From the NCBI GenBank assembly GCA_037379345.1, contig CM074511.1:49978862-50042861 (forward strand): a stretch of DNA of 64,000 nucleotides, given 5' to 3'. Positions 4,446-62,256 of the stretch are shown piece by piece (positions within the stretch are counted from its first letter, which is position 1; each line of letters begins with the position of its first letter). The notes under the pieces are model-generated. The model was not told where the DNA came from and did no database searches. It was given only the letters and a program-made list of their open reading frames with translations. This DNA comes from Perna viridis. Lineage: Eukaryota. The position numbers and the translations under genes are program-made.

Positions 4446-4610
4446 AATACTACATTCTTTTGATGACCGCTATAACCTTGGTTCCCTTAATTGCTATTAC
4501 CCAACCGCAATCAGATAATTGATGCAGAAATTTCGGTGGAACACTAGTAACAAATAGAAAGATACAAATTGTATGTATTGCAAATTTTGATATGCTGTAC
4601 ATGTGTTTCA

Positions 4611-5320
4611 ATTAATCGACAACATAATTGCCCAGTGTGGTGGACGCGTTTTTCAACAAACGGTCGGCAATCAAATGGGAACAAATTGTGCTTCTCTATT
4701 TGCTGACCTATACCTTCACTCTTAGACTGACTTTATAGCTGATCTAATCCGAAAGAAAGAATATCGTTTGGCTGTATAGATGACGTATTATCTTTAAACA
4801 ATCCTAATTTTGGGGATTTGATACATCGCATCTACCCCAAAGAACTTGAGATAAAGGATACTACAAACACTGTGAAGTCAGCCTCATATCTTGACCTACA
4901 CTTAGAGATCGATGGTAAAGGAAAACTATTGACCAAACTTTACGACAAAAGACTTTTCATTCAAAATTTTCAACTTTCATTTCATCTGTGGCAACATCCC
5001 TTCAGCTCCTGCGTATGGAGTGTTCATATCACAACTCATACGTTATGCCAGAGTTTGCCGAAATTACCCAGACTTTTTGTATCGCACTAGAATTCTGACA
5101 AATAGGCTTCTGGAACAGGGTAATGTTACAACAAGAGTGAAGTAATCAGTGGAGATGTTTTATGGTCGTCATCATGAACTCGTGGATCGTAATGTTGTAT
5201 CCATGTGCGCCATGAAAACTGATTTATTAAACGTGTCATAGTTTTCCTTTCCTCGTTTGTCTACCCTGGACCTGACTTTTTATGAGCAACTAGGCAGGTG
5301 TTTCTAGAAAAGCAGAGGAA
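4611..5320 (+). mobile_element. Penelope-like element, reverse-transcriptase core fragment
   Basis: GGRVFQQTVG..MGTNCA.LFADLYL..IDDVLSLNNPNFGDLIHRIYPKELEIKDTT..SASYLDLHLEID..LTKLYDKR..AYGVFISQLIRYAR, with frameshifts. Confidence 0.8.
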
Positions 5321-6832
5321 CATAGATACGATGTACTCAAGGAAGCTGAAAACCACCATCATAAACCAGGCTCTGAGACAAGGCATTAGGACAACGAAAG
5401 CGGGAAAAGACTTAGAAATCCATGGATAAGATCAACAGAACAGCAGGAAAAATAACAAGTCAGGACTTGATGTCAGGCTGATAAGATCGCCCAGGACAGA
5501 GGAAAATGGAAATCTTCTTTAAATGACCAATATCCTGCAAAAGGATGATAGTGTTTAAGTCAAGTTAGTCATTTGTGAGCAACATTTGTACCTTATTGAA
5601 TTCCGAAAGATAGACATAAATTATACCGCTTCAGATAGTGTTGCAGTTCTCAGATCTACATGGATTTCATAGATTCCTTTAGATCTTTGGCGTGTTTTTA
5701 AGTATGTTAAAATTTCATACTTGAAAACAGATAAAGGCGATTAAATAACCGCTGATGAAAGATAAAACATGTTCTTGATTCACCAACTCAGTAGTCAGAC
5801 TTGTCTGGGCCCGAAATACATCACACTTTATTTATCATAAGTTGCAGTATTACAAATTTCAAAATACCGAAAATACTCAGGTTTCATTACTTCAACTGCA
5901 CATAGTATAACTTCTGGGATATTGATTTGCCTTCAAATTTTGATAGTTTGAATTAAATTACTTCTTTTATATAATTTATTCTTTTTTTTAGATCTCCCTA
6001 ATGTTTCTAATGTTGCTGATGATAAGTTACATCTTGAAACACGTGTATTTGCATTATATATGATCGGTAATTGTGAATTTAACAATATCATGATTAATTT
6101 ATGCTTTGTTCGAACATTAAATGCTAAAGAAGTTTAGGAAAGAAAAGATGGATAGGTAAATTCTTACAATTTCCAGGGTCAGAACAGTATAAAATATCAT
6201 TACAGTATCTGTCCTTACAACATAGCAGGCACTTGACATGGTGTCCTTCGGCTCGACGTCCGAATTTTGGACCAGTAGTGTGGAGACATGCTTAAAATGT
6301 GGATGTTAAAAAAATAACTGGTTGAATCAAAGATTTTTACATCCTTGTTTTGTATAGTTCCTATAAAGGTGCTTGAATTTTGTGCCACTATAATTAACTA
6401 TAATCCCCTGAAAAAGGAACAAAGACGTTCTAAAACAGAATCGATGAATGACTTGTACAGTACTATTGATTAAGGAGAAGACCATACCAAAGTTTAAAAC
6501 ACACCCACGAGTGTTGCTTAGCGTTTTTCGACGACGGATAAAAGAAAAACAAACAAACAAAAATACAAAACCCTACAACGTCTGATAATTTTGTTGTTTA
6601 TTCTAGTTCTATGTTCTGGATATATGTATGAGTACTGGTTTATTCTTTTGAACCTGAACCTGATTCTGTTATAATCATGCTGGTAACACACCTAAATGTA
6701 AAACAACAAAGATAGCCGACACAAATTCTCGCTTTGTTAATACCCAAAACTGATTATGGTTTTATGTTGTGAACTGTGTGATCACTGTTATTTGTTTCAT
6801 ATTTCAATCATTATGTTAAACAACTAGTTATG

Positions 6833-9908: not shown

Positions 9909-12900
9909 ATGACTAATATTTACTGTGAGTAGTTTATTTCATACAAGATTTGTTTTTTTTTTTGAAGAAAAATAATACTTAAAGCAACAAATACCAGATT
10001 CTTCTTTTTTTTAGTTTTTTTTAGTTTGAGAGGAAATGACCTGCAGAAAATAATGGGACTGTATTTCTCTCGATTTAAATTAAATTTTAGATTAACTTAG
10101 TGATTGGTATAAGGTTATAGAGGACAACATCAAGATAAAATTAAGATATAATCTAAGAAGCTCAAAAGCCCTGTATTCGGTCTGACAGAAAGTTATGCCC
10201 AGTGAAACGCTTTAAGATTTCCGAGTTAAGTGCAGCCGAAGTGGTCTAATAAAGCTGAGTGAGAAAACATACTGTAATACACAATTTAACATTTTCGTAT
10301 TGTCTTCATGTAAACAAAACGTTTATTAAATTTTAACAGCAGTCTTCATCGTAAATCGCGCATTTCATTTGTATTAAAAATAATCGTTATTTTCATCGCT
10401 GTTCTGAAAATTAAATTTTAGACTGTTCCATGAATTTGTGTATTTCGAAGTTTAAGATATAAACTCGGCCCAAAGCCAACCAAGGCGTCATCGGACCAAA
10501 TATAAATGGCATAGTAATTGATAAGATCTCTCTAGTGTATAACTTCGTCCTCTTTCAGGTTAAACCTGCCTCGTATAAGATCCAATTACCATTTGGTGTC
10601 ACAAAAGTTCTTATTGAATACATTAATCAATATAAATTGTTTTTCCCACTCTTTCTATGGTTAGTTAGATACAAGTTATAAATATTTGTTTTTGGTCTGC
10701 AGATGGGTTGAAATAATTTTGAACGCGTTAATGCCACTCAGCAAAGCAAGACCAATTATAAATCGAAATGCATAAAGTGGATTTTGCTTCTAGTGTATGA
10801 TATACTTAAAGACAATTGTACACAGACTTATTAATGCATTCGTGAAAACCTATTTGTGCATTTTATTTCAGTTACCATACTTGTAATATGTGTCGTTGGA
10901 TCAGGTAAGACGCTGCATAGGTTTCAACTGTTCAACAATATTCTTTACAGATTTTGTACTTAAACGCGTTTATTTTCTAAAACTTTTCAGTACTTTATTT
11001 CAAGTACAAAAAATACCAGTTTTATATACTGTAAATTTCGATATGCTGTACACGTGTTTCAGGGAGTAACCCCTCATCAGCAGCATTAAAATCAAATATG
11101 TAGGAAGATCATCATCAATATATTAGTTGTATACTCATACTCATTACCAAATCTATCGAACGAGGAAGCTAAATCCATCACCGAGAGGTTCTACCATATG
11201 CAATCCAAGGTGTTTTACGTATATTTAAATTTGGAATACTGTAAGATTTTATAAATAGGGTAGATAAAATGTGATATCATTCGGAGTCAGACAAGCCTGA
11301 CTACTTGGTAGGTGTATACCCTCGGGAACCTCAGATCCACCAGAGTGGTACCGACCCAGTGGTTCTTAAATACAAAAAAATACCAGTTTTATATATTATA
11401 AATTTTGATCTGCTGTACACGTGTTTCAAGTAGTAAACTCTCATCAGCAGCATTAAAATCAAATATGCAGAAAGATTATAATCAAAATATTACTTGTAAA
11501 CAAGAAGTACTCATAACCAAATCTATCGAGGAAGCCAAATCCATCACCGAGAGGTTCTACCATATGCAATGCACACCTTTCAATTTTGTTAAATAATATA
11601 AAATATGTTTACTGTTTACACTACTGTAATAAAGTAAAAGGCGAAAAATGTGAAACAGATTGTCCTTTTCGTTTTGCAAGCCGTTTTAAGAAAGATTTTA
11701 CAAAACCAAGACAAAAAAAATGAAAAAAAACCAACTTTCTTTAAAAGGGTTGTAAGGTCTGGTATTATCAATTATAAATGATTTATGGCTCTTAACGACA
11801 GACGATTTTCTTAACAGAATTATTCCAAATTTCTTGAATTTAAATAGAAAGTGGACCACAGTGTTTATCATGCAGTGGAGTGGAAAATGTGTGTCACCAC
11901 AGTATAGAATGTGCCAATGATGAGGTAAAAAGTAAATAACATTAACGAAATGTGTTTTAGAAAGAAATAAATACTTTGATGTTACAAATTTATTGTTTTT
12001 GAGGCATACTCATTGCCCAATTAGCTAAATTAATGATGGTATTAGACGAACAGAAGTTACACACTAATTACACTTGTATTAAATGTATGATTGCATAGAA
12101 TTGTCATTCATTTGAAGGACAAAATAGGCAGTCAAACAATTTAACAATTTAAAAACTAATTTTAAAATTGAAAGAACCCGCAGGTTCGTTCAATGGTTTA
12201 TAGTGTATTCAAATTTATGAATGAAGTACTTTTGAATTATACACAGCATTCAACATTTTCCTGTTTTAAAATGTTTGAACTACTTTTATATCAGGTTTGT
12301 TACATGCATCACTATGTCACAGAATCAGGTGAAGACTTGATAGATTACGGATGTATGTCTCCACAGGTATTTTTGACTGACAACTTATAAAATTACAATC
12401 GAACATGATAAAATAACATACAAGGTGTTGTGTCATACAAACACAGTTTATGACGTTTATAAATTCATATTTTCTTCCAATAATGTGTTAGTAATGATAT
12501 CTACTCCGCAAACTGATACGGTACCTCATTTGACAAGCATCTCAGCATATACTGTTTTTTCTAATACTGCAACCCTACCATTTTAACTTATTTAATGATT
12601 CAAGGAGGGACATTCGATCCTAAAAGCTTGAATTTTAGCTGTGCTCCTTGGTATCTTTTCTAATAAGTTATTTAACTGTGTCTGTTATTATCGTCAAAAT
12701 CCGATCAATTTAGTTCTATGCCTAATAATTTCTTTGCAAAGCGATATTGTTTTCAGTTCGGTTTCATTTGAATTTTTAACATTGCTTGTTTTTATTTAGG
12801 AGAATATTGTATCTTAGGTTATATCCGGTAAAAGACATCTTATTTGATTCCAAAATTTAGAAATCAGCCTACGATCTTATACATGACCGTATCCGTTTCT

Positions 12901-15900
12901 CACATAATCCGTTGTAAATCTTATAAGATTTAAATGTTCATTTTTAAATTATTGAACGAATATATTTTATAATGGAAGTAATCTTTATCACACCAATTTA
13001 GTTCTAAAAAAATGAAAACAAAAGAAAATATATATTTATCTGTTCCTCTATTAATATATATATTTAGATATTTGTATATATTTTTTATTCATTTATAGTT
13101 TAAACGTCAAACTACTGTGTCCCTATCCAATGAATAATCGCTACACCACTCGTTCTGTTCAAAGCAGCAACTTTGATCAACATAACATGATAATATTTGA
13201 CCTTAAAATAATGCATAGAGATACATTCAGCTTAACTTGAAATGAATTCTCAAATGAAGTTACAGTGGCTGGGTGTTTAAAGCAATTTAGTATTAGATCT
13301 CCGACAAAGAGTTCGTTCCATTGAAAAGTAAACTAAAATTAACAGTACAAAAAGTTTTGTTCAACTATAGTTTAGTATATTTGTTAGACATGACAATGTT
13401 TGTTCCAGCAATCAGGGTATGTTTTGAACTTTCTTCGATCATTTGTTTTATTTACTTCCCGGTTAATTCTTTGTATGTTGAAAAAGTCTATGTGTATTTG
13501 GTGACAAGAGAGAAATCAATATATTGATTGCCATATTGTAGGCATGTCCAAATTCTTATTCGCCTATACAAATAATTGGTCGCAGGAATGAGGGTCATCA
13601 TATCAAATGTACCCATTGTTGTAATACAAAACTGTGCAATGCCAACTTATCCTGTTCAAGTAATGGAAATATCCGTAAGTAAATCGACTATTCCTTACTC
13701 TTTAACATAATTTCTTTTTATTAGTCCATATTTTATAGCAACTTTAAAAAAGAAAAAAATGTTTCCTCTTTTGTAATATGTAAAATCTTAAAATAACTTT
13801 CAAGAGGGATAGTACTTTATTGTCGGCGACTTGATCAATTTTTTATTTTTCCTCCTGCCTGATGATTTCTTAGCGTTGACTACTAAAATGGTACAAAAGT
13901 ATTTGAAAATTTTCAGGCAACTTATCCATTCATCGACTATAACGTCGCCGATAAACAGCATAACGTCATTTTTAAACGTTTCCGAAGAACATCACATCTC
14001 GCCCTGTCAGACTTGCTGTCGCTGTATTTATATTATTATTTTAAATACAGAAAAAAAGATTGTTTTTATTAATTGGAAACACTTTTATCTTGAAGGGAAC
14101 GGAAACCATGAAAAACATCATGTAGATAAATAAAATCATTAAAAGACCTTGAACAACAGAATAATTACTGAAATCATCTAACATTTTATATCTAAATTGT
14201 ACTGTGCAAGGACGCTGCTTCAAAATGACATACATGTATATTTTAATTTTTGTTCAAGATTCTCAAACATTACCGCCAATGGAGTGTAGTGACTTACGAA
14301 TTACAAAAAGTGGAGTGTTTTCTATATATCCATATGGAACCTGGCAGCAAGAAGTTCGTGCCTATTGTTATGTTGATCCAAGGATGCATATCTGGACGGT
14401 AATTCAATTTTATTTGATCAACCAATAATTATTGCTAATATATAGCATCCAGTGCGAGAATCGTTAAAATAATAATATTTTCTTTCAAGAAAAGGATTTT
14501 TTAATCTAACAAATTAACAAATGCTGAAACTAAATGAAAGACGGGTCTGGGGTTATTATGCGATAAACATTTGGAAAAATCTTATGAAAACTCAGTGTGT
14601 AAACTGATATTATCATAGAAATATTCAATAAAGAGTAGTATTGATAGTATCATAAATTATATATTAAGCTTAGAATATAATTTTCTATCGCCAAGTTTAG
14701 GAAAATATGAAATATTTTTAAATGTGAATGAATATATTGACGTCGCAGGATTCAGCTTCAGTTGTATTTGGAATTCGGTAAATGCTTTATTGAGTATGTT
14801 TACAATGTTTCGTATTCGTGGTTTCTTTTCATTATTCACTGATGGTATTATTATTTCCAAACTTCATGAAAAACCAGATTTTTCCCATATACATGCACAC
14901 TTTATATATATAAATATATATATACACGATAGATATCAGTAATAGTAAGTGAATGTTATAGGATGAATACTGAGGTTCTTCCAGTATAAATAGTTTATAC
15001 TATGGCAATCTTATTTACAACTTAAAAACAACATATAATACAGCTCCTCAGCCGTTTGTAAAGATTTTTTAAAAAGTGTATATCCTTTAAGCAAACTGAG
15101 AGGATGGTAAACATATTTTAAAAACGCAAAAGCATTAATCATATCCATTAAAGGTAGATTTTTTGTTTGGTGAAGTATTTCTATAGTTCTATCAAAAACT
15201 GCGTTATACGTATCATACACATAAAAGTGTTATTCTAGGTGATTCAACGAAGGATTGATGGCAAAGTAAACTTCTACAGAGACTGGCAGTCATATAAAAC
15301 TGGGTTTGGGACCCCAAGTGCAGAGTATTGGCTGGGTAATGAAATATGTTTTACAACAATTAAGATAACATTCAGGGTATCATAAATCTTATTTTTTAAA
15401 TGCTAATTGAATGACAAGTAATATATGGCTTCGATGTTAAAACAGAAAATAATTAAGAAAGAATCCATGCTTTGTTGTAAAAATTATCTAGTCATGCAAG
15501 TTTGCTTGTGTCCATCATTTCTGAAATAACACGATTAACAAAATTAATAGTAAAAATATCGCATGGTCAGAAGAAGGGAAATACAAAACCAGTAATGTGC
15601 GAAAAATAAGTACAAAATAACACTAATAAAATACCCAAAACAAACAACATGAATTCAAATTTGATTGATGTGATCTATAAAGTAAATGTGATCATTGAGA
15701 AGCATTACTTACTAAACAGAACAATGAAAAGGAGGAGAAGTTGTAGTACGTTTCGACAATAAGTGCATTGATAATTTTTAAACTTAAAAACAGACTTTTG
15801 ATAAATCAAGTATCCTTTTTGAAGGGAATGATGTAATACATGAGCTAACAGAAGATTCCAATCACGCCTTAATGATAAGATTGACCGATTACAGTAATGT

Positions 15901-16576
15901 CACTAAGTATGCGGAGTATTTATCATTCCATGTGGCCAGTGAAGCCCAGGGGTACCGATTGACAGTTAGCCTGTTTGATGGAAATGCAAGTATGGACGAA
16001 AGTTGAAGATATTTTCAAATTCTAATACGCATTTTGTATAATTTGCCCAACTTAATTCTTTTAAAACAAAACATCAATGATTAAAGGACTTCAATTGTGT
16101 ATAAAATATAATATGATTTTAACTTGCCGAATAACGTACCTAACAAATGATTCATAAATCAAATTTGTTTATAATATACAACACATTTCTAACTCAAAGA
16201 CATAGAGCATAGTAATGACATCAGTTGTTTTTCTTTTTTAATTTGAAGACATTTGATGTAAATGGTTACGTTTGCTGAGATAGATAGTATGTCACTGTTA
16301 CAGATGTGATTTTTATATTAAAATGTTAAAGCTGACGACCTATCCTATCATAGCGGACAAAAATTTACAACACACGACAGAGATAATGATCCATATTCTT
16401 CCAACTGCGCAATTAGGTATAAAGGAGCTTGGTGGTACAAGTCATGTTACTACTCAACACTAAATGGGCTTTACATTACAAATCCTAAGGATAATACTGG
16501 GACAGGCATGGCATGGTACAACTGGCATGGATATCATCCGCTGAAGGAAACCATAATGATGATCAGAAGACATTAA
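9909..16576 (+). CDS. Secreted LU (Ly6/uPAR three-finger)-fibrinogen-related-domain protein, about 325 aa (paralogue B, intact)
   Basis: Exons 9909-9924 (least certain), 10872-10904, 11848-11924, 12295-12366, 13542-13674, 14259-14398, 15239-15335, 15825-15989, 16332-16576. All introns GT-AG; sum 978 nt, open frame. Signal-like [16 protein letters not shown]; LU cysteines from CLSC to CCNTKLCN; FReD motifs [22 protein letters not shown]...[22 protein letters not shown]...LNG, MMIR. Confidence 0.88.
11044..11085 (-). ncRNA. Type I hammerhead ribozyme 1
   Basis: Minus strand reads UGCUG CUGAUGA GGGG-UUACU-CCCU GAAAC ACGU GUA^CAGCA: complete core, stems I and II, minimal palindromic stem III. 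Predicted cleavage between 11049 and 11048. Confidence 0.85.
11411..11452 (-). ncRNA. Type I hammerhead ribozyme 2
   Basis: Minus strand reads UGCUG CUGAUGA GAGU-UUACU-ACUU GAAAC ACGU GUA^CAGCA. Stem II covaries with copy 1. Predicted cleavage between 11416 and 11415. Confidence 0.85.
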
Positions 16577-19128: not shown

Positions 19129-22100
19129 TAACCGTAGTCGTTTTTGGTGCTACTGTAGCAGGTATGGCATCTTTATTGCTCTTGGTTGGTAACAAGGTAT
19201 TAAATTATTCTTGCTTTTCATTATAAGAGTCTATGTGTATGATTGAAGAGCTGGTTTCAAGGTAACTATATTGTGTTTACAATTATATTGTAAGGTAGTT
19301 ATGTGTTTTAATGATTCCTGGAGCCAAAGTAATAGTGACCAAAATGTATCCCTTAAACGAGTTAATTAGGAAATTGATTTGTTTTTGTTGATTGAGGTCT
19401 AGAAGGATTTAATTCGTGTAAGTCATGTTTAGCGTTGTAGTCAGGATCAAGATTAGAAGATAAGAATTTTCTTTGATTTTAATAGGTCAAGATTACCGTC
19501 AAGATAAGGTTTCCGCAAGACTAAAATTTCTACTCTCGTTTTAACCTGTACTTGCAATTTATTAGCAACTCGGCGGGTAATTTAGAAAACCAGAAGTTTA
19601 CCCTATTGGTGCACTTGGTCCCTGTTCCAAGTGGTTTTTGAGGAGTCCTGGTCGCTTATGTATTCTAGTGTGTTCTATCTGTTTAATTTGTCAAGTATTC
19701 GTGTCCGAATCATTAATATCCCGTTCTCGTTATAATCATAGTCTATTTGCTTTAAATTGAAAATAATTTTCCTGTAGTTAACATTATAAACTTTTTGAAC
19801 TATTAGGGTCGCCATATTTGGGGGCTTTTAGACTCATTTTGTTTTAATTACCCTATAAATAGCATTGGCTTATCGAAAGCTCTCTGTGGTAAATACAATA
19901 AAACCTGTAAAAATTCGATATGACTTTGCGTTGTTGCTGGAAGAAAGCAGCGAAGACTGGAAACATACATCGTACCTCATGACAAATGTGACCATTCAAA
20001 TCGAATACGATATACGTCACAACGAAAATCAATCGAAGAAACTAATCTTTATAATGTAACGTATACCAATTCGATCTTTGATTAGTTTCACTCATCATGA
20101 AGAGCGATGTTTGCTTTCACTTTATTCGCCAATTCAAAGGTCATACTGCTTTTTATGGGTTGTATTTCGATAAATTACATTTGAAACAAACTTTGTTAAT
20201 TCACTTAGGACTCCGGCAAAAGTCGCAACACAATTTTCTTGTGAAATTAACATTATTTTGCGCCACTAATTATTGGAATGCCAATCTGCAAATTTAATTC
20301 ATTTTTCCGAAAACACAATCTATGTAATAAATAAGCTAAAAATGGTTGTTTAAAAACACAATTAAACGTTTTCCCAATCGTTAACACTTGAAGCTCATCG
20401 GCACTCGTCATCATATTTTGATATTCACTCTTTACATTTGATTTTATCTTTTAACTTTACAGAATCTGCCACCAAATGCTTCTCTTGTAGTGGAGTAGAA
20501 CAAGTTTGTAGTCACAGTATTCGATGTGTCAGTAACGAGGTAAATGGTTTACCAAATAAATCAATGACTGTCTTTATAATAATAATAATAATAATCTTTA
20601 TTTCAAGAGGGTTATACAGTCAGTTTACAAGCTAATCTTCCCTGAGGCCCTTACACACAAAAACTATATCTACAAAAAATAAAAAAACACATCACAAAAA
20701 CAAAAGCTGATTTTACAATACCATATCACTTTAAGACAATACAATATAGTACATTTAAAAAACAGTGTAAGCAGTAACAATTTTCTCTTTTAAGATTCTA
20801 TTATCAGTCTTTGAAAGACTGATAATAGAAGACACATTAGTTGAAGAAGTAAATGGAAACAGAGAAACGGTCTCTATTTCCATTTCCAATGATCTTTTTA
20901 TATTGCATTTTTGCAAAGTACAAAAAAAAACGGCAATTGTATCATGCAGCAATATGATATACAGAAGATCAACATTGAAAACAAATATTCAGTTTCGTTA
21001 TTTTGTTATTATCCTCCATGTATTGCTTTAAAGAAATCCATTATCTTAATTTAGGTTACAGACCACCAATTCAACCAATGACCATTTAGAACGTACGCAG
21101 AAATAGTCCTACGCAGAAATTACCCCTGCTCCTCATAGTGCTGTGAAAAAAAGTTCTCATCTTATTTAAAAAATTTAAACAGTTTCCGAAAGGAAAAACA
21201 TTTCTGTACATTTTATAGGTGCATTTTGCTTCTTGTGGTGTGAAGCCTCATCTCCATAATGGTTTCTAAATATACCCCTATCTTGTGAAAACAATGGGAT
21301 TTCCCATGCTATTTAGAGAGCCTTCACTTCCAGTGACCAGTACTGCACTGCAAGTCTGCTAACCCCACATGCCATTCTGAGGATTGTGAGCTGACATATG
21401 TAGAATCATGCTGATATATAGTCCTCTGCAGGTTAAAGTTAAGGTAAAGTCCAGAGAAGCCATTGAATATTGTGAAATTAGCATAGAAGCCTATGGGAAG
21501 TGGAATTAGTGGTTTCTAGCCTTAAATCATACAAGTTGACTTCTTGTAGTTTCAGACAATGTAAAATCTAAAAATCATAGTTGTGTAATGCTAATTTGAC
21601 ATGTGCATCGCACGGAAATGTTCGTAAGTACTTTTAAACTACAGTGATACATTCAACATAAATAATTTCAAAAAAGAAATTTTGAAACCCATTCAATCAT
21701 TTAAGTCACAATTAATTGAATATATTGAATAAACATTTAATTATTATGTAATTTTTTTTCATAAACGAACTTAAATGCAAATAAAAATATCTCAAGCTGT
21801 TTTTTTTTTTCTTATATGCTTTATTTTATAAATATATGTCATACTTTAAAACAAGTACTATCTTTAAAAAAGAGATAGCCAACGCAGTAATTTTTTATTA
21901 CTTATAATATTCATCACGAAATAACGCATGGCACGCTATTTCAATTTCCTCCTTCGAACCCCACTAAGTTACCAGTATTTGGCCAATCTGGAAACATAAC
22001 TTTGATCAGGTGACTTGCGTTTCCATGGAAGAGCGTCTGTAAGGTCAGAGGGTAAAAAGCGAAACTATACCGACTGGGTCGGAAAAAGCTGTTTATTTGC

Positions 22101-24749
22101 AAAAATATGCACTTTGACCTTTCATCATACTCTCGTTTAGTTACATTTTAACCAAAAATTTAACATTACCTCTCTACAAAACCAAGAAACAACATTGTTT
22201 TACTCAAGTATTTTTATTGCTATTATCAAATTTATCATCATTATTAATTTCTTGTTAAAGACCGATGTCTTTTGTTAGAGTATAACAATAGCAACTTTCT
22301 ACAGTACATACTTAGCTTGCAAGTACATTTAAATTGTTGCCTGGGTTTTGCTTTGCTTTGTTTTGTTTTTTTTTTCTTTCTTTCTTCGTAGCTGTAACAT
22401 CCATTCTACCAACAGAGTGTGAGGTTTTACAAATAACTACCAGTGGAGTTTATACCATCTATCTGTATGGCTGTTCCAGAAGTCAATGTATACTGCTTTG
22501 TGGACTCCAGTCTATATGCTTGGACAGTATAGTATTCCTTCATTAAATCATGTAGTTGCTTATCGGCCAATACAATTTTTTTAGTCGAACGGCTTTCCCA
22601 TTTGATTTTTTAAGAATTTCTTCTGTTTTTTGTTTTTTTGTATTTGTTGTTTTTTGTTTTCATGCATATACCACTATTTACCACGACATTCGATTTGTAT
22701 CCAATAAATTCAAACAAACAAAAATTTAAATATCTTAATTTTTAAGTTTATATACTCCAGTATAAAATCAATCTAATGCAAATTTTAAAAAAAAAAGGGT
22801 TTATCAATCAAATACGGCCTTTGTAAATAATTTTTAATTGTATTATATATATTTCGATGGAGTGTCCGTGAAGAAATGGTCTTACATTGTATCATCGGGA
22901 ATTAGTCGATTGGTTATTGCCAAACAGTACGTCATAGGTTTGTGATTTTTCAGTTGACATTTGTCGGGTAACACGAATGAATTTATGGTAATAATAAAAT
23001 AACCGAACTAGTAAACTCTAGAAAGTTGTCAAAAGGAATAGTCAAATGGAACGTCAGTAAAACAAATGATCTCCGTGACTGGATTAAAAGTAGATTTCCT
23101 TCAAATCATGCTTCGTTTTTTTTTCGGAAAAAATGTACTTACACCCGACTTGTTAACACTCTGAAATTTTTGTCATAAGTGAGAGAAATTCATTGTTTTT
23201 ATCCGTTCCACTGCACCCTAATCGTACAAAAAAGGGACATTGCGGGTCATACAAAGAAGGTTTGATGGATCACTGAACTGCTACAGAGACTGGCAGGAAT
23301 ACAAAGATGGTTTTGGTTCACCTGTTGGTGAATATTGATTAAGTACGATTTATTTTTGAAGCAATTTATACTCATAATAGCATCTGTTTCAACTACCTTA
23401 TACAGAATAGTATAATTCCAAATTTTTCACACATAAAAAAAGTTGTTTTTAGAATCTTTGTAATAAGATAAACTTCTGTTAAACGGAATGTTTCCTTTAA
23501 AATCGACGACCTATAAGTGTATATTTTATGCTCTCATTTTAAATAATTTGACTATTCTATTCAAGGCAATGAATATATTCTTGAAATTTTGTCTGGTTCA
23601 AACCACGACCTGAAAATCATTATGAAAGATTTTAATAATGTGACCAGATTTGCCGAGTACTTGTCGTTCCACGTGTCAAGTGAAACCAATAAAGATGGAG
23701 TCGTGATTGGTTCTTATGATGGCGATGCAGGTGAGGGCATTTTTCAAATTATTCTGGCCAAAAATTATTAAAGAAACATTTTAAGACAAGGCTTCATACT
23801 ACCTTTATATATCACATGATTCTAAAGCGAGAGTTACATAGTGTTGAGGGTGCACGTCCTTCCACATGTATTTCCTCACTTCAGGTACACAGGGGAGTAT
23901 CCTTATTTTATTTCTTACCCCTCCCTTCTTACACCACTGAAAGGAATTGAATGAAACCTTAAAAGAACTACATATTGAATATTTTAATCTCTTCTTTCTG
24001 ATTTAGATCATGTAACTTTCACAGAATATTTATTTAATATTGAAATATTAATGTATATCTCGTGCTTTGAATTCTAATCCAAATAATATTGGAGTTTCGA
24101 AAGGTGCATGCTATATCTAATTAGGTATCAATTTAGTAAGCATTTCTTACAGTTTCTTTCTGGTTTAAAACATTTATGTTTACAATGAGGACAAGAAAAA
24201 GTTAAAACATCAATGGAAAAAGTCGTTGTAAAGCAAGCATGTTTTAAATCACCGTGCTTCGATTTTTATACCTTAAGAATTAAAGGAGCATGTTCAAAAC
24301 CATATCAATGTGTGTGATAAAAGATAACATCGTGAAGAAAACATAAGTATGCTGATGATGAGCTTTTGTGGTGAAAAAGGTATGCCGTTATATTTATTGT
24401 TTAAGCCTCAACAAACACTTGCAGGTCATAACCAAATTAAGTTGACAACCGCCTGTTTGAGTGAACTCCAACATGTTAATACATATAAATATATCTTACA
24501 GGTGACTCATTTAGACATCATGATGGTAAACAATTTTCAACTTTTGATAAAGACAATGATGAATCGTCAGGTCACTGTGCAGATTTATACAAAGGGGCTT
24601 GGTGGCACGGTAGCTGTCACGATTCTAACCTCAATGGCTTATATCTAAGGGGTAGTACAAGTCAATATGCTACTGGTATGGTTTGGCATACTTGGCATGG
24701 TGATTACTATTCTCTTAAATCTTCAGTGATGATGATCAGGAAATATTAG
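19129..24749 (+). pseudogene. LU-FReD paralogue C, pseudogene
   Basis: Exons 19129-19161; 20463-20539 (SATKCFSCSGVEQVCSHSIRCVSNE); 22392-22526 (135 nt vs 140, frameshift near 22474); 23246-23342 (acceptor AG changed to GG, EY-TGA-L stop at 23336-23338); 23566-23730; 24502-24749 (GAWWHGSCHDSNLNG..MMIRKY*). The start exon and the two distal LU exons were not found. Confidence 0.87.
21054..21521. mobile_element. Non-autonomous TTAA-targeting DNA transposon (Kolobok/piggyBac-like MITE)
   Basis: Near-identical inverted copy at 58635-59101. Imperfect TIRs GGTTACAGACCAC / GTGGTTTCTAGCC; right flank TTAA, left flank TTTA. Confidence 0.8.
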
Positions 24750-25499
24750 TTGTCAGCAGTTTGCCTCTCTCTCAATAGATCGACATAGAAATTGGAATAA
24801 TGGAATAAAAGAACTTATAAAGATGACGATTCTTTGATGTAGGAATAAACTTGCCTCTAATACAAAACACAAAAATAACAATGAAAATAATTATTGTAAT
24901 ATTTGGTATACTGCACACGTGTTTCAGTGAGTAACCTCTCAACAGCAGCATAACAACCAAAAACCAAAAATAATCGAAGTAAAAATATAAATACCAAACA
25001 AAAACGAAAAACCAAACAAATCGAACTAAAAAGCAATATATAGCACCTAGACGTTCAACCATTACAATGCAAGGAATGAAGCCAAGTTTTGTGTTTTTAT
25101 TGAAATGGGATAAGGAAGACTAGAACTGCTCCATGAAATCAGAATAGTACTTCAAAAGATAGTCGAGTTTTTGTCTATTTCAACACATATAGCAAACACA
25201 CGTTTTTATTGAAATAAAAAACATAAAAAAAAATAAAATGTACATATTATGCAACAAATATTGAGTACAAAATGCTGAAAAACAGGACATCATTATACAT
25301 GATGAAAACCACAGTGGGTGATGATATTTAAAAAAAGAATTTTATAAAGGAGATTCAATTGTACCATGTAAAGGATAAACCATGGGTAGCACAGTTGTAA
25401 AATCTCAAAGAAAATGAAAATGGTAAGGATAAAGTATGGATCAAAAACAAATCTAACGGATTTCTACGGAAATTATTGCAACAACTTGAGAATAGACAA

Positions 25500-28400
25500 T
25501 CAGTTTTGTATCATAGTCATTTTAAATACCCATGCCCATTCACATGGCATATGATTGTAAGGTATATTAGGTATTGTGATGTATATCCCTTGTCCTCCGG
25601 GTCCTGCCGTCCATGTCAAAGAGTTAGGATAACCAAGCATGGTTACTTTAGTAGATTGTGATGGTATTGGTGATACTAGCTTCAGAACATTATTCTCTGG
25701 CCAGGCTAGTAAAATTCCAAAGACAACTATACCTTCTTCTTCGGTGTTTCTCATTGTATACCTTTATAAAAATGTAATATCTCATCGTTAAAGCCATGAC
25801 TTATACATGACAAACAGTAACTACATTAAAGTATCACGAATAATGTTGTGGAATCATAAGTGCGAACTGATACCAATGCACGAATATTTAGAAATTGTCC
25901 ATCTTGTTTACCATTGCATATTAAGCACTTAAGCATATGATTAAAAGAATTTAAAATTTGCAGTATAAAAGAAAGTTGAATAATATAGTGTTTCAAAAGA
26001 GTTGTGCTACATCTAAAAAAACAATCACATGATGCTCATTATTAAAGCCCGCTCGAACTCAAAAAAAAAACTAAAGAATAAGATTTGAGTACAATATAAA
26101 TATACCATAAATATTTTGTAGCGTTGTCGGTCTGGTGGGTCCATGGTACAGTGCTATATATACCTTCACCATTTACCCTCAGCCAGCTGCCGAACTGACG
26201 TAACCTTTCCTCAAAAACTGGTATTATTTTACCGTCTTTAGTAGGGCCTATATTCATAAGCATATTTCCACCGCAACTACAAACAGATGAAATGTGAAGA
26301 AAAAACAATAAACTTTCAAAATAGTTTGGAATTATGAATCATTTCTACTAGGACTGCTTCTAAAACGAAAAAAAAAACACGAAAAAATGAGTTATTAACC
26401 CATTATTAGTAAATGCCTATGATTTGACTGGCTAGGGACACGTTTACAAATCCATATATTAACCTGATGTTGCAAGGGCATTTATCCCGAGGTAACTGAC
26501 CATTGCCCCTGGATATAGCCCAAATTTGTAGATACCAAGTATATTCACGTCTTATGTTGACTTTTTCATGTAAGTATTTGAAAACCACGTTCAATACATT
26601 TTTCTAGCAACAAAAGAACGTATACTTCAAAATGTTCTTTTCTTGAATCAACAGTTACATAAGGTGTGATTGTTTTGTTTATACCTAATTATCCTTGTTC
26701 AAGAGTAAAGAAGTCTTAATTTACGGATATTGAATGAATGCAAATAACATATACTCTCCACTTCATTCCGTAAATATGGAATCAAAATGCATCCAAATAT
26801 CAAAAAGGAAATCGAGATAGTTACCTGCAAAGTTAGTAGTATTTATTTCAATTGTCACGCCCTTTGCGGGTCCTGGTGTCAAAAGAATAGGCCCGCAATA
26901 CCGCTTAGCTTGGCGTAAAAGGCGACTAAATAGTGCTCAGAACCCTAGCCGGGGGCTAGGGCACTCTGTCCACAGAGCAACTGGGTTGTGTGCCCCAGGT
27001 GGTATGGGGTAACCCTAGCATGTTAAATACTGGGTCGTCAGGCTACAATACAGAAAACCTGACCGCAAACCATAGTAGTGAACCGTGTCTGGAAAGATGC
27101 CACGTTCCTCGCACGTTAAAGAAGCATGCTGTAGTTTTCGCTAGGATAACCTTTGCGCTCCGCCACTGGAGGCTAAATTGCCCGACCCTACCCATCCCTC
27201 CCTATTTCTTTTGGCAATCAAAATTTGTCGACTCTATTATCCTTGTGTCCCATCCCATTTTTCGTTTCATCATCATCATTTCATGTTCATTTAATCATCC
27301 ATTTCATGTTCGTCGCCTGAATATTGGTAAATATTGCTGCTCGGGCTTAAACGCCAACGATCAATCAATCAACTGTCACAGATAAATACCTCAATACTTA
27401 TTCTTCAGATGACTATGTTAGAAAAAGTTTTTTTCTTTAAATTTTGCCTATTTTTATGTGGAGTTTAAAAGTATGTGCCAGGTTTTACTTGTATTAGACA
27501 CATGTATTTGTCGCTGTTGCAACCGACTGGACAAAATACCTGATAGTGGATGCAAATGTTGATATAATCTCATGTATACTAAGAAGCTGGTCTAGTTTGG
27601 CTGTTCTGCGGTAACCCCATGAATAAGTATCCACAGACATACAGTTCTCCCATTTAAATTTCAGGAGTTTACCTGAAATGCAATAAGGCATATACAGAGA
27701 AAAATGTGGAAAACTAGAGACGCTACAAAGAGATAACAACTATTAAAAAAGAACAACAAAAGTATTTTAACCTTCAACTACGGTGAAAACTTCCAACAAC
27801 CGGTGTCCCCTGAAAACCATGTATACCGGGTGAGGGAAATTGATATCACAAAATACACAAAAGATAAAAAAAAACAAAAATTCTAAATCAAACAAGATCA
27901 ACGAAGGCTAGCCTGTATTTTATTCAAATGTCATTCACATATACTAGATGTTAGAAGATATGACCAATTAGAATTGGAACAACAAAATACGATGATTAAG
28001 ATTGTCAAAAAATGTAACCTTCTTTAAACTGGTTGGTTACAAGTGTCTCTTTAACCTTAATCTACCCACCTGGGTTGTATTTGTCTCTACACGTTTTGTA
28101 TCCGCCATGTTTGCAGAAACATTCTTGACACCATCTATCATTAGTTACTACAGTTTCTTTCACAGGACTGTAATTATCAAAGTTAAGTTAGTCTTAAACC
28201 TTGGCATGGTTGTATGTCATATATTGGTATAACTATTATGTGTTGTAGTTTTTTAAGCGCTCACCTGATGAAGTAGGAGAAATTGCAGATATTGCAGGAC
28301 GGGAAGGCTGACTTCAAGCCAGTCAGTCGCCACTATACCCCCTAAAGACCGCGTGTTTGGTGGAGAAGCAGTTAAGACATTGTTTTAAATATTCGTGAAT

Positions 28401-54700: not shown

Positions 54701-57700
54701 TTAGTGTAACACATGAATTAACAGCAGTGAAACTTTGTTTTACCAAAGGCACATAATCAACTAGTGAATTATGCAATTTTCAATTTCATTTGAAATACTT
54801 AAGTTTTTGGGGCTGATTTTGACATTTTCTGAACAGACTCCTTTGTGGATGAATCACATCTTGTCTGATATTTATAAAAGAGTGCTAATGAAAGTTTCAT
54901 GAGTAGACATTTTTCTACATAAATTGGGTTGACTACCTGACAGTAGACACAAGCTGTTTCAGTATATCTTCTATGGAAAGATAATCATCCAGTCTGGCAT
55001 TCCTACGGTATCCCCAGGAGAACTTGTCTATTGTCATTGCATTTTCCCATTTATGTTTCTGTAGCTTTCCTTTCAAAATTGGAAATTAATAAAATAAAAA
55101 ATAGTTATCAATATATCAATTAATTCAAATTAGTTTTTTATGCATTTATTTCTTTAACCCTTTAGCAGAAATATCAGGTAATATTTTTTTTTCTTCGGTT
55201 TTATTTTATTGTCTAACTGCAAGCCATTAACTTATTTCATAGTTATTCATCAACCAAATGATAAGGGTTGTGAGTTTACTCAGAAATTGCATAAGAGCTA
55301 ACTTAAATAATGTCATATTTCTCAAGACCTCCACATTCTCTGTAAAAGGTGCCCCTGTTCCTTATTTTTATTACCATGCCAATAAAATCAAAACAAGAAA
55401 GCGCAGACCTCATCGATTTTATTTTCAGTAAATAGACTCTCATTAACTTCTGGAGGCAATAATATACAGTTATTAAATGGGTTGAATGCAATAGACCAGA
55501 ATATATGTTCTGAGGTACTGAGAACACTTGATCATTATCAGTGCCAAAGGACAAATGTTCTGGTCTATTGCATCCAACCCATTTAATAACTGTTTTATTA
55601 TCTAATTTGTCTATCAGATATAATAAAGAATGGAAATAGGGAATAGGTCAAAGAGATAACCATTTGACCAGGAATAGGAAAGTGACCGCTCTATGTTTAC
55701 GAATTGGCAGACGAGAGTCACATCTACGTTTTAACACACAAGCGTTTTGTGTGTAAATTCCAATTCAATGAAGCGCTTAAAAAAGTTCAACCAAGCAAAA
55801 GGCTTAGATAAAGGTCATTATGGGGTCAGTGTAATAAACTCCTCAAGGAGACTATTGCACCGTGCAATAGTACATCGACAGTGCAATAGATCGCCCTGTC
55901 CTGAATAAATTTTGAAAATAGAGAAAAATATGTGTATATTTAATAAACAAGATAAAACCTTATAATTAGGTAATAAAAAATTTTAAAAGAATATACCTTA
56001 TCCTCCTTGATATTTCTTGAATGGCCTGACAACCCAAGAAAATAGTGTTGAATGGCCCGAAACATTCCCTCAACTTTCTTCTAATTTTCTAACAATTTAC
56101 ATATAATGTGAATCATGTAACAGAAATTCTTGGTGCAATGGAAATTTGCTTACAGAATTTGATATGTACCTGGGTTATAGCGATCTGAGCAGGTAAAGTA
56201 TCCACCATGTTTGCAGGAACATCCCTTTCCCCAGCGGTCATTAGTAACAACAGTATCTTTCACTGGACTAAGATAAAAATTGTTGCATATATAAGAATCC
56301 TAAAATTAGCCTTTATTGGCTTTGTACTCATTCATATAATCTGCATAGAAAAAATACCTAAAATCGTTAATTCTCTGAGGCTGTAAGACTCCTCAACAAA
56401 CATATTTAACAAAAAATTAACATATGTACCTGGTTCTTTAATACAAATGTAAAATGAACCAGAGTATATTCAGCATAAATTAATAGATGCATGTGTATCT
56501 GCATGTACCTCTCATTATATAGCCATGCTAGAAATTCTGTGGAATTCCAATAGGTGTCTAAGGCTTCCCAGTCACCATCAGACCATATCACTTCTGGTTT
56601 GTAGTTGTTCACCAACTCGTACAGTTCTGGCATTGTCTTGCTCTAAATACACAAGTGAAAACTGTTAAGTCACAAATTAAATGCATAGTTGCTATAGGTA
56701 CAATCGTAAGAAATAAATATTAATACTTTAATAGTAAATGCTATTGATTGAAAAAAAATTGAAAAGAAACAGGAAACAGGGAATGTATCAAAGTGACAAT
56801 TAATCTACCAAACTGTGAAATAAACACATCCATTTATCTGACTATAGAGTTTAAACTTTAAAAACAAGAACAGTCAAACCTCAATATGTTGAACTCAGAA
56901 AAGTTGAAATCTCAGATAACTCAAACTAATTTGACAGTCCCAGCAAAACTACCCTTACTAAAATATAGTTATAAAACTGATGACTCGAACTCGGATGAAT
57001 CAAAATCTCGATCAACTAGAGGTTTCAATCAGTCCCCTTCAAGGTCTTCAAGGTCAATCAACTCAAATGACGTCCCAAAGAAAACTAATAAGTGGGAAAA
57101 ATGATTGCTTGATAACAAACCATTATAAAGGTTTGCTTTTACAATTAGTGATGCATAGACACTTGTACATGTATGTTCAACACAAAATAGCATGTGTAGA
57201 AAAAAAGAATTTGATCAAACTCAATTTCAATTGACACCAACAATGATTTTGGATTTTTTGATAATAATAATAAAAATTTTACTGAGAAATTTTATTTGTT
57301 GAAATGATATCCAATCATTGACATTTTATAACTAAATGCCAAACAGATGATAGTAACTGATGTATTTCTACAGTATTGTTATTACAAAAATAAGTATTTT
57401 CTAATATAAAAAAAATGAGTTTTTTATATTACAAATTCCTTTTCTAATATTACAAATTAGATTTCTAATATAACAAAACTCTTTTTTAATATTAAAAATC
57501 GATTGAATTTCTAATATTAAAAAACGATTTTTTAATATTAGAAATTGATTTTCTAATATTAGAAAATGGATTTGTCATATTCAATTACGATTTTTTAATA
57601 TTAGAAAATCATTTTGTAATATAAAAAAATGTGACTGATTTTGCAATATTGCAAAGTGATTTTCTAATAATACAAATTCATTTTCTAATATGACAAATTC

Positions 57701-60700
57701 ATTTTCTAATATTACATATTCAATTTGTAATATTACAAAATGTCTGATGTTTTATAATATTACTAAATCATGAATTTGTAATATTAGAAAATGAATTTTT
57801 AATATTACAAAATGAATTTCTAATATTAAAAAATCTTTTCTAATATTAAAAAAAAAATGATTCTGTAATATTACAAAATATTGATTTTTGTCCACTTTGG
57901 CTTGCCATAGCAAAAAAAACAATCAACAACAAATATATTTACCAGTTAAACTTGACATCGAGTGACTTGAACCTCAGATAACTTTTTTTCTTGTCCCTTT
58001 GACTTCTACTTAGCTTACCTTTACAAAATCTTGAGTTTTGAAACTTGACTGTTTGTCACTTAGATACAGTGGATGGAACCATTCAAATAAAGAGTGATAA
58101 ATTCCAAACTTTATATCTGTGTTCTGTCTAATGGCTGCAGCTAATTCACCTGAAGTACATGTACATCAACAGATGAAATCAAAATCTGTTACAGAATATA
58201 ATTACAAAGAACTACTCTAGTTACATGTAACTGCATGTACATAAATTACATGAATTACATGTATTAAAAAATAACCTTAATATTAAAATGAAAAGATAGT
58301 CCACCCATGCTTGCCTTGGTTGGAACATGTTTCTTTTGTTTTGGCTGTCCATTGAAAAAAATGTGCTCTCTGTATCTTGCATTTGGTACATTAAATGTAT
58401 ATATATCAGACAATCAGGTATGGAAATGTGCAAAATGAGTTAAGATTTTTCATGAGTTTGATTCTGGGGGCTTACATGTATGTAAATAATGTAAGGCCAA
58501 AAAAAAAGTATGTGTGTTTACGGTCATCCGACCGACCCTCATTTTATCGCCGCGACCTTTGTTTATCAGCAATTTTCTGAAATACCAGAAATTCTTGCTT
58601 TTTCTGTCACCAGTAATGGTATTTATCGTATTAAGGCTAAAAACCACTAATTCCACTTCCCATAGGCTTCTATGCTAATTTCACAATATTCAATGGCTTC
58701 TCTGGACTTTACCTTAACTTTAACCTGCAGAGGACTATATATCAGCATGATTCTACATATGTCAGCTCACAATCCTCAGAATGGCATGTGGGGTTAGCAG
58801 ACTTGCAGTGCAGTACTGGTCACCGGAAGTGAAGGGTCTATAAATAGCATGGGAAATCCCAGTGTTTTCACAAGATAGGGGTATATTTAAAAATCATTAT
58901 GGAGATTAGGCTTCACATCACAAGAAGCAAAATGCACCTATAAAATGTACAGAAATGTTTTTCCTTTCAGAAACTGTTTAAATTTTTTAAATAAGATGAG
59001 AACTTTTTTCACAGCACTATGAGGAACAGGGGTAATTTCTGCGTAGGACTATTTTTGCGTACGTTCCAAATGCTCATTGGTTGAATTGGTGGTCTGTAAC
59101 CTTAAACAACAATGGCTGCCAATAAAAAGCTGTCATACCAACCCTATTTTTTTTCAGCATGTGACAGTACCTAAGGGAGATAATAAATCATATGCTTCTA
59201 GTTAACAAACAACCTATAATTTTGGTTTGTTTTAGGTCATCCAGAACCATAACCATTTCTGAATTCTATTTGTACAACTGTGTGTATATTCTGTTAAGTT
59301 TTAAATCGATTTGCCAATGTACATTGTACAAAGGTATAATACAGAAGGGAAAGAATAGATTGTAAGCAAATACATGTACATAATGCAAACAGACTTACAA
59401 ATAAATTTTGAAAAAAGGAATATACAGTAACATACACGTACTGTACAGGTATATTTTGAACATTTACAGGTGTAGCAAAAACACATATTGTAGCAGTATC
59501 ATACTAAAAACCTGACATACCAACAAGATCTCTGTTAGGACCAGTGGCATTAGAGTTCCAGTTGAATGAATATTTTGATGGCCAATTTGTATATCCTTCA
59601 TGGTGCTTGCTGACGAGAACTAAGTATCTGAAATTAAAATGAAACATTGTTTTTTTTTCATTGTATTGTAATTCAATAAATTTAATTATATATTCATATA
59701 CATCTATATGTGGATCTATGTGCCCAACAAACACTGAACGAAACAAGTTTGCTTGTTTGTTGGTGTTTAACTCCCGAGCAACAATATTTCAGCCATATTC
59801 AGGTGATGAACATGAAGTGGATGATAAAATGAACATGAAATGAAATGGGACGGGACACAAGGACAATGGGGTCGAGCAATTTTGATTGCCACTAGAAATA
59901 GGGAGAGGTGGGTAGGGTTGGGCAATTTGGCTTCCTGTGGTGGAGCCCTATGGTTCCTACTCAGGGAGAATACCACCGTAGGGTTTTTTTAATGTGCGAG
60001 GAATGTGGTATCTTTCCCAACACGGTGCACCACTATGGTTTGCCGTCAGGTTTTCTGTATTATAGCCTGACAACCCCAGCATGTAACACGCCAGGGGTAC
60101 CCCATTCCACCACCTGGGGCACACAACCCAGTAGCTCTGTGGGCACAGTGCCCTATCCCCTGGCTAGGGCTGAACAAAACAAGTCATTGGGTTGACATGC
60201 TCCCTACCTTTTAATGTTCAAGGTACAACTAAGAAATTAAGAACAGTAAAGTGTATTGAGGAAGTCTAAATAGTTTCAGTTGGACCAGGAGTCACTGCAT
60301 TATTGACATTCAATTTTTAACCACCCCCCCCCCCCCACCCCACCACCACAAAAAAAAAATAATTTAATAATTTGTACGTGAATAATAAACTTACTGCGCC
60401 CCAGAACTCCTGAAAATATCTGCCCATTCTCTTGGATTATAAAATTCTGCGGTAAACATTGGTGCAAAATCTGCATAGGTAAAATCTGGACGGTAATTTT
60501 TCTTCATAAAATCAACCATTGCAGGCAAGGCTTTACCTTTCCAACTCCACCAAAACCATTCTGAAGAAAAGGCTGGCACAGAAAACACGCCCCAATGGAT
60601 GAAAATGCCAAGTTTTGCTTCATCATACCATGTTGGAAGAGGACGTGAATCTAATGAATCCCATGTTGGATCATATTTAGTCGCAAAAACACAAGAGAAA

Positions 60701-60969: not shown

Positions 60970-62256
60970 GCCCAATGCAGGTCCGGTTGTCAGTGGTCTG
61001 CAGCAGCGCTAAGAGACTATAAATAGCGCTCAGAACCCTGACCGGGGCACACTCTACACGTTGACATACTCCCAAACAGTTAGAGTGGGGAAACGCTCTC
61101 GGACCCACGTGGGTTCTGGGAGTAGGCCAGAGCGTCAACACAGCAGCCCAGCCGCTAGTAGGATATACTCTGACCGAGTTCTTCGGTCAGGTATCCCGAA
61201 GCCTGGGCTCCGCCACCAACACCAGTTGGTTCTACTAACCTACTAACATCGACCGTCAGAGGCCTGTATTGGTATTCTAGGTTGTTAAAAACCCCCAATC
61301 ATCATGACTGGGGGCTAGGGCGCTCTGCCCACAGAGCAACTGGGTTGTGTGCCCCAGGGTGGGAATGGGATACCCCTGGCATGTTCCATATGCTGGGTTC
61401 GTCGTCCAGGTCATACCTGACCACGAACCATATAATTATGTAGTGGTGCACCGTGTTGGAAAAGCTCTAGACGCCAAGTTCCTCGCACGTAAAGAATCCT
61501 GCTTTGGTACTCGACAGGAGAAGGAGCCTCAGCTTTTCTACAGGGCTAAATTGCCCGACCCTACCCTCCTCTCCCAATGGCCAGTGGCAATCGAAACTCG
61601 TCGACCCAATAATTAATCCTTGTGTCCCATCTCATTTTTTATTTCATCATAATTCCATGTTCATTTTATCATCTATCCCATGTTCATCGCCCGGATATAG
61701 CCCCGTGCAGGTCCGGGTGTCAAAAGAATAAGACCCGCAGCAAAGCTAAGGTTGTCGTAAAAGGCGACTAAATAGTGCTCAGAAACCTAGCCGGGGGCTA
61801 GGCGCTCTGCCCACAGAGCTACTGGGATGTGTGCCCTAGGTGGTGGAATGGGGTACCCCTGGCGTGTAACATGCTGGGGTTGTCAGGCTATTAATACGGA
61901 AAACCTGACCGCAAACCATAGTGGTGCACCGTGTTAGGAAAGATGCCACGTTCCTCGCACGTTAAAGAACCCTTGTGTGGTATTTTCCCGGAGTAGGAAC
62001 CATAGGGGTCCGCCACAGGAGGCTAAATTGCCCGACCCTTCCCACCTCTCCCTATTTCCAGTGGCAATCAAAATTTGTCGACCCCATTATCCTTGTGTCC
62101 CACCCCATTTTTCATTTCATCATCATTTCATGTTCATCGCCCGAATATAGCTGAAGTATTGCTGCTCGGGCGTTAAATCCCAACAATCAATCAATCAATC
62201 GCCCGGATATAGCTGAAAAAATTGCTGCTTGGGCGTAAAACACCAATTTATCAATC
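60970..62256 (+). mobile_element. Long form (about 775 nt) of the structured retroposon, interrupted by a nested short copy
   Basis: Same head (GCCCAATGCAGGTCCGG), an extra module of about 260 nt, a diverged body, and the tail resuming at 62213. Degenerate TSD TC(C/T)TTCAG(A/T)TG at 60958-60968 and 62255-62265. Confidence 0.8.
61701..62197 (+). mobile_element. Structured SINE-like retroposon, full-length short form, nested
   Basis: Perfect 15-bp TSD ATCGCCCGGATATAG at 61686-61700 and 62198-62212; (CAAT)n tail. Confidence 0.92.

Follow-up and report, generated by a model that had tools for sequence, protein, structure and literature searches.

The non-LTR retrozyme of the mussel Mytilus galloprovincialis has been described as about 5000 type I hammerhead ribozymes (HHRs) lying in 350-390-bp repeats, together with abundant heterogeneous circles. 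Its monomer cleaves at about 0.1 per min and is ligated by RtcB in vitro, with Penelope-like elements (PLEs) proposed as its mobiliser (PMC7229834). Monomer cleavage has been reported for invertebrate motifs whose helix III is 2 bp long (PMC7229834; PMC7761336). According to the account of the Xenopus retrozymes, one of nine predicted dimers cleaved in vitro (bioRxiv 10.64898/2026.07.22.740005). The hammerheads of PLEs, known as min-HHRs, are described as having no helix III, and those of the schistosome families have a helix II of 7-8 bp (PMC4209133). The reverse transcriptase (RT) of an anole PLE is described as starting internally, 111-118 nt into the ORF, with the hammerhead cut at 26; it prefers AT-rich targets and extends both strands (PMC11167929). 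Here we report a locus in the 64,000 nt of DNA that we analysed (the window). Very probably it holds 1.55 units of an abundantly repeated ~380-nt element, most likely a non-LTR retrozyme, each unit of which has its own type I hammerhead; the copy sits in antisense orientation within a predicted intron. It would extend the known mussel kind of retrozyme to what is probably another mytilid, an extension that would come as no surprise to a specialist.

Two type I hammerheads lie 367 nt apart on the minus strand. In hammerhead A (11404..11463) the CUGAUGA of the core starts at 11447 and the predicted cut follows the GUA that ends at 11416; in hammerhead B (11037..11096) the corresponding positions are 11080 and 11049. 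The core is complete in both repeats, and the original prediction of two full-core hammerheads at this distance is confirmed. The stems that it proposed are also correct. Stem II is GAGU/ACUU in A and GGGG/CCCU in B, round a UUACU loop, and in distal stem I UUUGAU pairs with AUCAAA or AUCGAA. In stem I of both motifs a bulge separates 5-6 proximal pairs from 6 distal pairs. Helix III has the form AC-ACGU-GU, two base pairs with a palindromic tetraloop. Helix II has 4 bp, and its closing pair is G10.1-U11.1 rather than G-C in A, in B and in a relative at 24.9 kb of the window. Loops cap helices II and III while helix I is open, which makes both motifs type I and not the type III of plant LTR retrozymes. 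Assignment to the minimal class of hammerheads was mistaken, since min-HHRs are described without helix III (PMC4209133) and both helix III and a short, 4-bp helix II are present here.

The two motifs stand out from chance when their stems are taken into account. A type I descriptor that demands the core and helices I-III found exactly two matches on the two strands of the 64-kb window, namely A and B. Under the same descriptor, dinucleotide shuffles gave one match in 5 of 300 and two matches in 0 of 300. A loose core pattern without stems was not above chance, with 10 matches in the window and as many in 21 of 100 shuffles. The Rfam models scored neither motif as a hammerhead, at the gathering cut-off over the whole window or at E<=10 over 10900-11700. 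The best Rfam match was snoZ223, below its own cut-off, which we rejected as C/D-box mimicry of UGAUGA.

The whole insertion occupies 11005..11573 of the minus strand, with its 3' end at 11005 and a 5' truncation at ~11570-11573 where contigs of the family have loose ends. Repeat A (11371..11573, minus strand) is a 5'-truncated unit with hammerhead A, and its direct repeat at 11005-11207 on the same strand carries hammerhead B. The two repeats, of ~200 nt, are ~90% identical, with differences in 20 of 196 aligned columns and 9 gap columns in addition (86% by BLAST with gaps). Between them lies the remainder of the unit, a minus-strand spacer of 163 nt (11208..11370) with no ORF for an RT and GIY-YIG; aligned with the 5.9-kb and 24.9-kb copies, it lacks 13 nt that are present behind 11209 in other copies of the family. 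The predicted cut-to-cut monomer (11049..11415, minus strand) has 367 nt, 36% GC and, on the circle, a longest ATG-started frame of 40 aa, which places it among retrozyme units (~150-450 nt, GC below 50%, non-coding). Past the cut site of hammerhead B the element continues for a 3' tail of 44 nt (11005..11048, minus strand) with a U-rich tract at its end, the putative region of reverse-transcription start. No clean target-site duplication was found, the best match being 6 nt and not flush with the element ends; such a duplication (>4 bp) is optional in the definition of retrozymes. No empty-site joint was present among the 15 of 174 joints listed, and no tRNA-like part was found.

The abundance of the family was assessed by mapping 4 of 24 listed public runs on 10300-12500 at 82% likeness. 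The flanks have a depth of 65 in run X4 and ~100 in run X1. Over the flank, the summed contig depth is ~9,100 (X4) and ~9,800 (X1) at the ribozyme and drops to 3,400 and 3,900 immediately 5' of the ribozyme, then to 1,260 and, in the spacer, to ~240; these ratios give an order of magnitude and not a copy number. The depth at the ribozyme is therefore ~40 times that of the spacer, and the fall towards the 5' end may in part reflect greater divergence outside the ribozyme. The original prediction had named the absence of other copies of the 367-nt unit as what would speak against it; the family proved very abundant in the public DNA runs. Tandem units were found as well. Go-back joints that lead from 11573 to 11209 across 14 intervening letters occur in two X1 contigs and four reads of run X22, corresponding to a unit of ~379 nt, and 13 of the 14 letters are missing from the copy at 11005-11573. 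The joints listed (15 of 174) include go-back distances of 365+14, 345, 302 and 294 nt, so that the family has multiple copies joined head to tail. This abundance, the joints in other copies and the shortness of the longest frame all bear out the description of the unit as retrozyme-like, non-coding and multi-copy.

The two ends of the insertion differ in kind. Before 11005, contigs of the family (80 and 76) pass into flanks that are unlike (agreement 0.43), whereas those behind 11570/11573 carry on into the spacer (agreement 0.65-0.71), which indicates that 11005 is a 3' end common to the family and 11573 a local 5' truncation. Other continuations are found 5' of the ribozyme, for example behind 11110 in 98 X4 contigs. 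Contigs of X4 enter both junctions of the insertion and an X1 contig enters the left one; the insertion is therefore not private to the assembly, although either run may be related to the source of the window. The alignment of all four insertions in the window breaks off 44-53 nt beyond the cut site or its equivalent (48-53 nt in the other three), and all three other copies have damaged ribozymes. The decayed relative at 24873..25074 (minus strand) has the core CUGUUGA and one compensatory change in distal stem I. It lies between the converging 3' ends of the second fibrinogen-domain gene of the window and a fucosidase gene and is sense to the latter. A decayed, 5'-truncated monomer that includes the spacer is located at 5778..6085 on the plus strand, and the 13 nt after its cut site are deleted.

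The differences between the two repeats are informative about their origin. None of 27 positions in the core, helix III and inner stem I differs between them against a background of 9.9%, which on its own gives P=0.06. When the repeats are set against the letters that most of the run depth carries (40 of 196 variant rows listed), one stem II pair in each of them has changed on both sides in a compensatory way. In repeat B an A-U pair became G-C (11062 and 11072), and in repeat A another pair changed from G-C to U-A (11431 and 11437). Two random changes in each copy would spare all four stem II pairs of both copies with a probability of 0.009, and neutral decay of once-identical repeats is therefore unlikely. 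Distal stem I, originally suggested as a possible docking partner of loop 2, shows one compensatory and one wobble change; such docking would correspond to the tertiary contact between loops 1 and 2 of canonical type I HHRs. When five copies from the window were aligned, 3 of 18 pairs had changed on both sides and 17 of 500 shuffles scored as high, a weak signal from few related rows. Because each repeat has a compensatory pair of its own, the two likely derive from functional variants that were not the same, brought together by a template jump or in a mixed array.

Folding calculations and RNA reads were examined for signs of activity. The hammerhead fold lies above the local minimum free energy (MFE) by 7.2 kcal/mol in A and 3.4 kcal/mol in B, and the hammerhead helices have a probability of at most 0.08 in the 569-nt precursor. 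Nearest-neighbour models leave out Mg2+ and core contacts. The 367-nt monomer is no more stable than its shuffles (z of +0.72 linear and +0.95 circular, 100 shuffles). With 59% of the predicted circle paired, this one decayed copy does not have the stable, highly self-paired character, a descriptive trait rather than a strict one, that is ascribed to retrozyme circles in accounts that give it with no shuffle control in the sections concerned. The helix III palindrome is predicted to be more stable as a duplex (-10.3 kcal/mol) than as a hairpin (+1.4 kcal/mol), and a double hammerhead through the palindrome is possible in this model. An obligate requirement for a dimer is unsupported; the claim that cleavage takes place only in dimers is not established for this architecture, given the rate at which the mussel monomer was described to cleave (PMC7229834).

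In one RNA run 1495 reads out of 10.4 million mapped to 10300-12500, and in a second run 1501 out of 12.9 million; those at least 99% alike to the locus were 1 of 1495 and 2 of 1501. Since 91-92% of the reads continue into unlike sequence, they look like other family copies within host transcripts. Four and three reads, respectively, carry go-back joints, which tandem DNA would explain too. Neither run shows a pile-up of molecule ends at the predicted cut sites; standard cDNA is poorly suited to show self-cleavage. The ratio of read directions varies along the element, and the exons have no reads that could serve as a control for strandedness. The search of public runs listed no RNA run that contains the sequence, a result without bearing on expression.

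The antisense position in an intron, as claimed originally, is supported by a gene model predicted from sequence alone. Exons bounded by AG and GT at 10872-10904, 11848-11924 and 12295-12366 join in frame to encode a hydrophobic and then a Cys-rich peptide. The first (10872..10904, plus strand) resembles a signal peptide and is followed by a donor GT at 10905. The second (11848..11924, plus strand) is a Cys-rich exon of a fibrinogen-domain gene, in frame with the upstream exon and 61% identical to a paralogous exon at 20462-20545. The predicted intron between them, 10905-11847, has 943 nt and contains the element in antisense. Both paralogous genes continue colinearly into Fibrinogen_C exons. 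No copy of the unit was detected by blastn at 17.9-20.5 kb, upstream of the paralogous exon, and the two RNA runs had no reads on the host exons.

The neighbourhood holds two tandem fibrinogen-domain genes on the plus strand (~10870-16576 and ~20460-24749) with small Cys-rich N-terminal exons. Four tandem alpha-L-fucosidase genes follow on the minus strand (25500-60800), ~9-12 kb apart, whose paralogous exons are 61-81% alike. For a fucosidase exon of the window, the best named single-domain relatives are Mytilus proteins with 73-78% identity, and one unnamed protein has 93%, which suggests a host within the mussel family but outside Mytilus. Several other repeats were noted. The segment 10522-10595 has a 40-fold raised DNA depth and a few RNA reads and is a piece of another repeat. 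An AT-rich minisatellite of 21 nt, with ~22 copies and internal inverted arms, occupies 57396-57888. A dispersed family of ~400-nt repeats, 80-96% alike and in both orientations, is found at 1-425, 26951-27324, 59747-60152 and 61310-62148.

How might such a copy arise? By analogy with retrozymes published from mussel, coral and axolotl, transcription reading through tandem copies would give RNAs that cleave themselves after GUA, a host ligase of the RtcB type would circularise the monomer, and a Penelope-like RT/endonuclease would copy the circle into AT-rich DNA. The shared 3' end and the fall in depth suggest that reverse transcription would begin internally, just downstream of the cut site, and would usually stop early. 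A doubly cut monomer cannot template DNA through the cut site, and the template would therefore have been intact across the cut, either as a circle or as an uncut multimer. Copying beyond one unit would have given the 1.55 units and so kept two ribozymes. The element is antisense, so the host pre-mRNA would not be cut, and it is probably a tolerated passenger in its intron; a 367-nt RNA would be released from 11005-11573 only if the minus strand is transcribed. That the insertions have a 3' end in common, 44-53 nt beyond the cut, fits a Penelope-like signature of internal priming and the internal RT start described for the anole PLE. It is the signature to be expected of PLE-type priming on a template intact across the cut, a step which the reports on animal retrozymes considered here have so far only proposed. 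The main texts on retrozymes hold no description that we found of a 3' end common to insertions; their supplements may bear on it.

Relics of Penelope-like RTs were originally proposed as the mobiliser. Such relics are indeed present, as two Naiad-type proteins used as queries match five places in the window. They are of Naiad type, but Naiads, which dominate bivalve genomes, are reported without canonical HHRs, and the four mytilid Naiad rows of that report carry no HHR_core note (PMC8557442). The queries were Naiad-type proteins only, and other PLE clades are possible in the window. One RT relic (4612..5238, plus strand) is 5'-truncated and broken, and its frame ends after the RT with no C-terminal endonuclease. 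It matches P0134 with a tblastn E of 2e-52 and P0165 with 6e-36. The latter is a full-length relative with an N-terminal GIY-YIG, CxC and DKA, and the RT relics of the window are assigned to the Naiad type on this ground. Immediately next to the relic lies a 3'-terminal fragment of the retrozyme-like element (4558..4611, minus strand), its last 54 nt, inverted and joined without a gap to the truncated 5' end of the relic at 4611/4612 so that both 3' ends point outward. Inverted 5' joints are described as typical of PLE insertions (PMC8557442). The joint at 4611/4612 is a single old and rearranged site, the Naiad 3' UTR is incomplete with a scrap at 4451-4500, and later recombination could have been helped by an 11-nt stretch of similarity close to the joint. 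The surroundings of 4558-5330 are presumably an older LINE relic, to judge by eye from motifs of the RTE type.

The joint raises the idea, which we consider rather unlikely, that the mussel retrozyme is carried by Naiad elements. A Naiad RT would start ~45-50 nt past the ligated cut site and prime the retrozyme and its own cDNA from opposite target strands, leaving the inverted joint at 4611/4612. If true, this would name an enzyme for an animal retrozyme, paired with a PLE clade from which the retrozyme cannot simply descend, and it would supply an in vitro assay with a defined start site. As it stands, the inverted Naiad joint suggests a candidate for the mobilising enzyme, one testable through the number of such joints in any mytilid genome. 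The literature that names Naiads together with retrozymes contains, in the texts covered, no test of Naiad mobilisation.

The same data may be read in other ways. The repeats might be the pseudo-LTR partial tandem of an autonomous hammerhead-bearing PLE whose ORF is lost, in which case the thousands of ribozyme fragments would be its 5'-truncated ends and the short unit a side product. The steep depth gradient from ribozyme to spacer and the varied continuations 5' of the ribozyme, such as that behind 11110, would then have a ready explanation. A fixed 3' tail with a partial tandem is a hallmark of PLEs, and the Xenopus retrozymes are described to descend from PLE pseudo-LTRs (pLTRs). We nevertheless regard this reading as improbable. 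The spacer, short and without coding capacity, is found again at 5778-5875 in a copy of independent origin, and the unit is joined head to tail in other copies. Helices II and III are of the retrozyme and not the min-HHR type, and none of the five PLE places found in the window has the repeat as its same-strand 3' end.

Two further readings concern function at this locus. Both ribozymes might be under selection here, with a minus-strand transcript yielding the 367-nt RNA that regulates the fibrinogen-domain host gene. The 27 unchanged core positions and the two compensatory pairs, despite 10% divergence, are what selection would leave, and the insertion is shared beyond the assembly (both junctions in X4 and the left one in X1), with the proviso that the runs may be related to the source. 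However, a mixed template gives an equal pattern with no selection, each RNA run has at most two reads that match at 99%, and neither run shows expression of the host exons. The copy also has a 13-nt deletion and many letters that are absent from more than 97% of the family depth, and blastn found no copy of the unit upstream of the paralogous exon (17.9-20.5 kb), all of which makes local selection very improbable. At the other extreme, an AT-rich repeat may simply have been duplicated locally, its hammerhead look being accidental or long dead. Such a reading would agree with the lack of an Rfam match, with a hammerhead fold that is not the MFE, and with the damage to the ribozymes of all three other copies in the window. 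It is hardly credible in view of the absence of paired motifs from all 300 shuffles, the way in which stem II and distal stem I have changed in compensation, and the tandem units and 3' end common to the family. Our preferred reading thus remains the partial tandem copy of a retrozyme of the non-LTR kind.

Searches beyond the window were also conducted. A scan of metagenomes with the full flanked motif gave 0 matches, and a shorter motif matched three distinct loci (four rows), none homologous beyond the ribozyme; one of these (L001) was rejected as a chance match. Another (L003) has a 115-nt terminal repeat and a 1123-nt unit with a type I hammerhead at 145-195 whose helix III palindrome is identical, and is otherwise unrelated. 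The third (L002) is a similar terminal-repeat contig of 1028 nt with a core motif. The viral contigs scanned gave 0 matches, and the motif is absent from the supplements of PMC12818792, which are tables without sequences, and from one supplement of PMC8557442.

How does the locus compare with the known hammerhead elements as they have been described? Plant LTR retrozymes (PMC7761336) share the arrangement of two hammerheads in direct repeats round a unique non-coding middle. Their features are type III HHRs, LTRs of ~350 bp, a PBS, a PPT, 4-bp target-site duplications and units of 600-1000 nt, whereas the present hammerheads are type I, the unit is 367 nt, a clean target-site duplication is missing and the repeats are a partial tandem. 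The min-HHRs in the pseudo-LTRs of PLEs (PMC4209133), such as those of the anole PAc (PMC11167929), are alike in the type I core, the helix III palindrome, the partial tandem and the fixed 3' end downstream of the cut. They are characterised by the lack of helix III, a longer helix II, an extra nucleotide after A9, a G10.1-C11.1 pair and a flanking RT-EN ORF; in their place we find a 2-bp helix III with a tetraloop, a 4-bp helix II, a G-U closing pair and no ORF, which sets the element apart from this class. The vertebrate non-LTR retrozymes (bioRxiv 10.64898/2026.07.22.740005) likewise consist of tandem type I HHR units dispersed as monomers and dimers, and 42-44% of the Xenopus copies are intronic, which makes an intronic site ordinary. 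They differ in that their parent PLE is known by pLTR homology, a parent not found here, and in that the present copy has 1.55 units rather than a full dimer. The non-LTR retrozyme of M. galloprovincialis (Cervera and de la Pena 2020, PMC7229834) differs in that cleavage and circles were shown there, whereas the present element is known from its sequence and is likened by description only. The likeness extends to the type I HHR, the length of the repeats (350-390 bp there, 367 here and ~380 in the family), the thousands of ribozymes, the GC content below 50%, the non-coding and heterogeneous copies and the mussel-like host.
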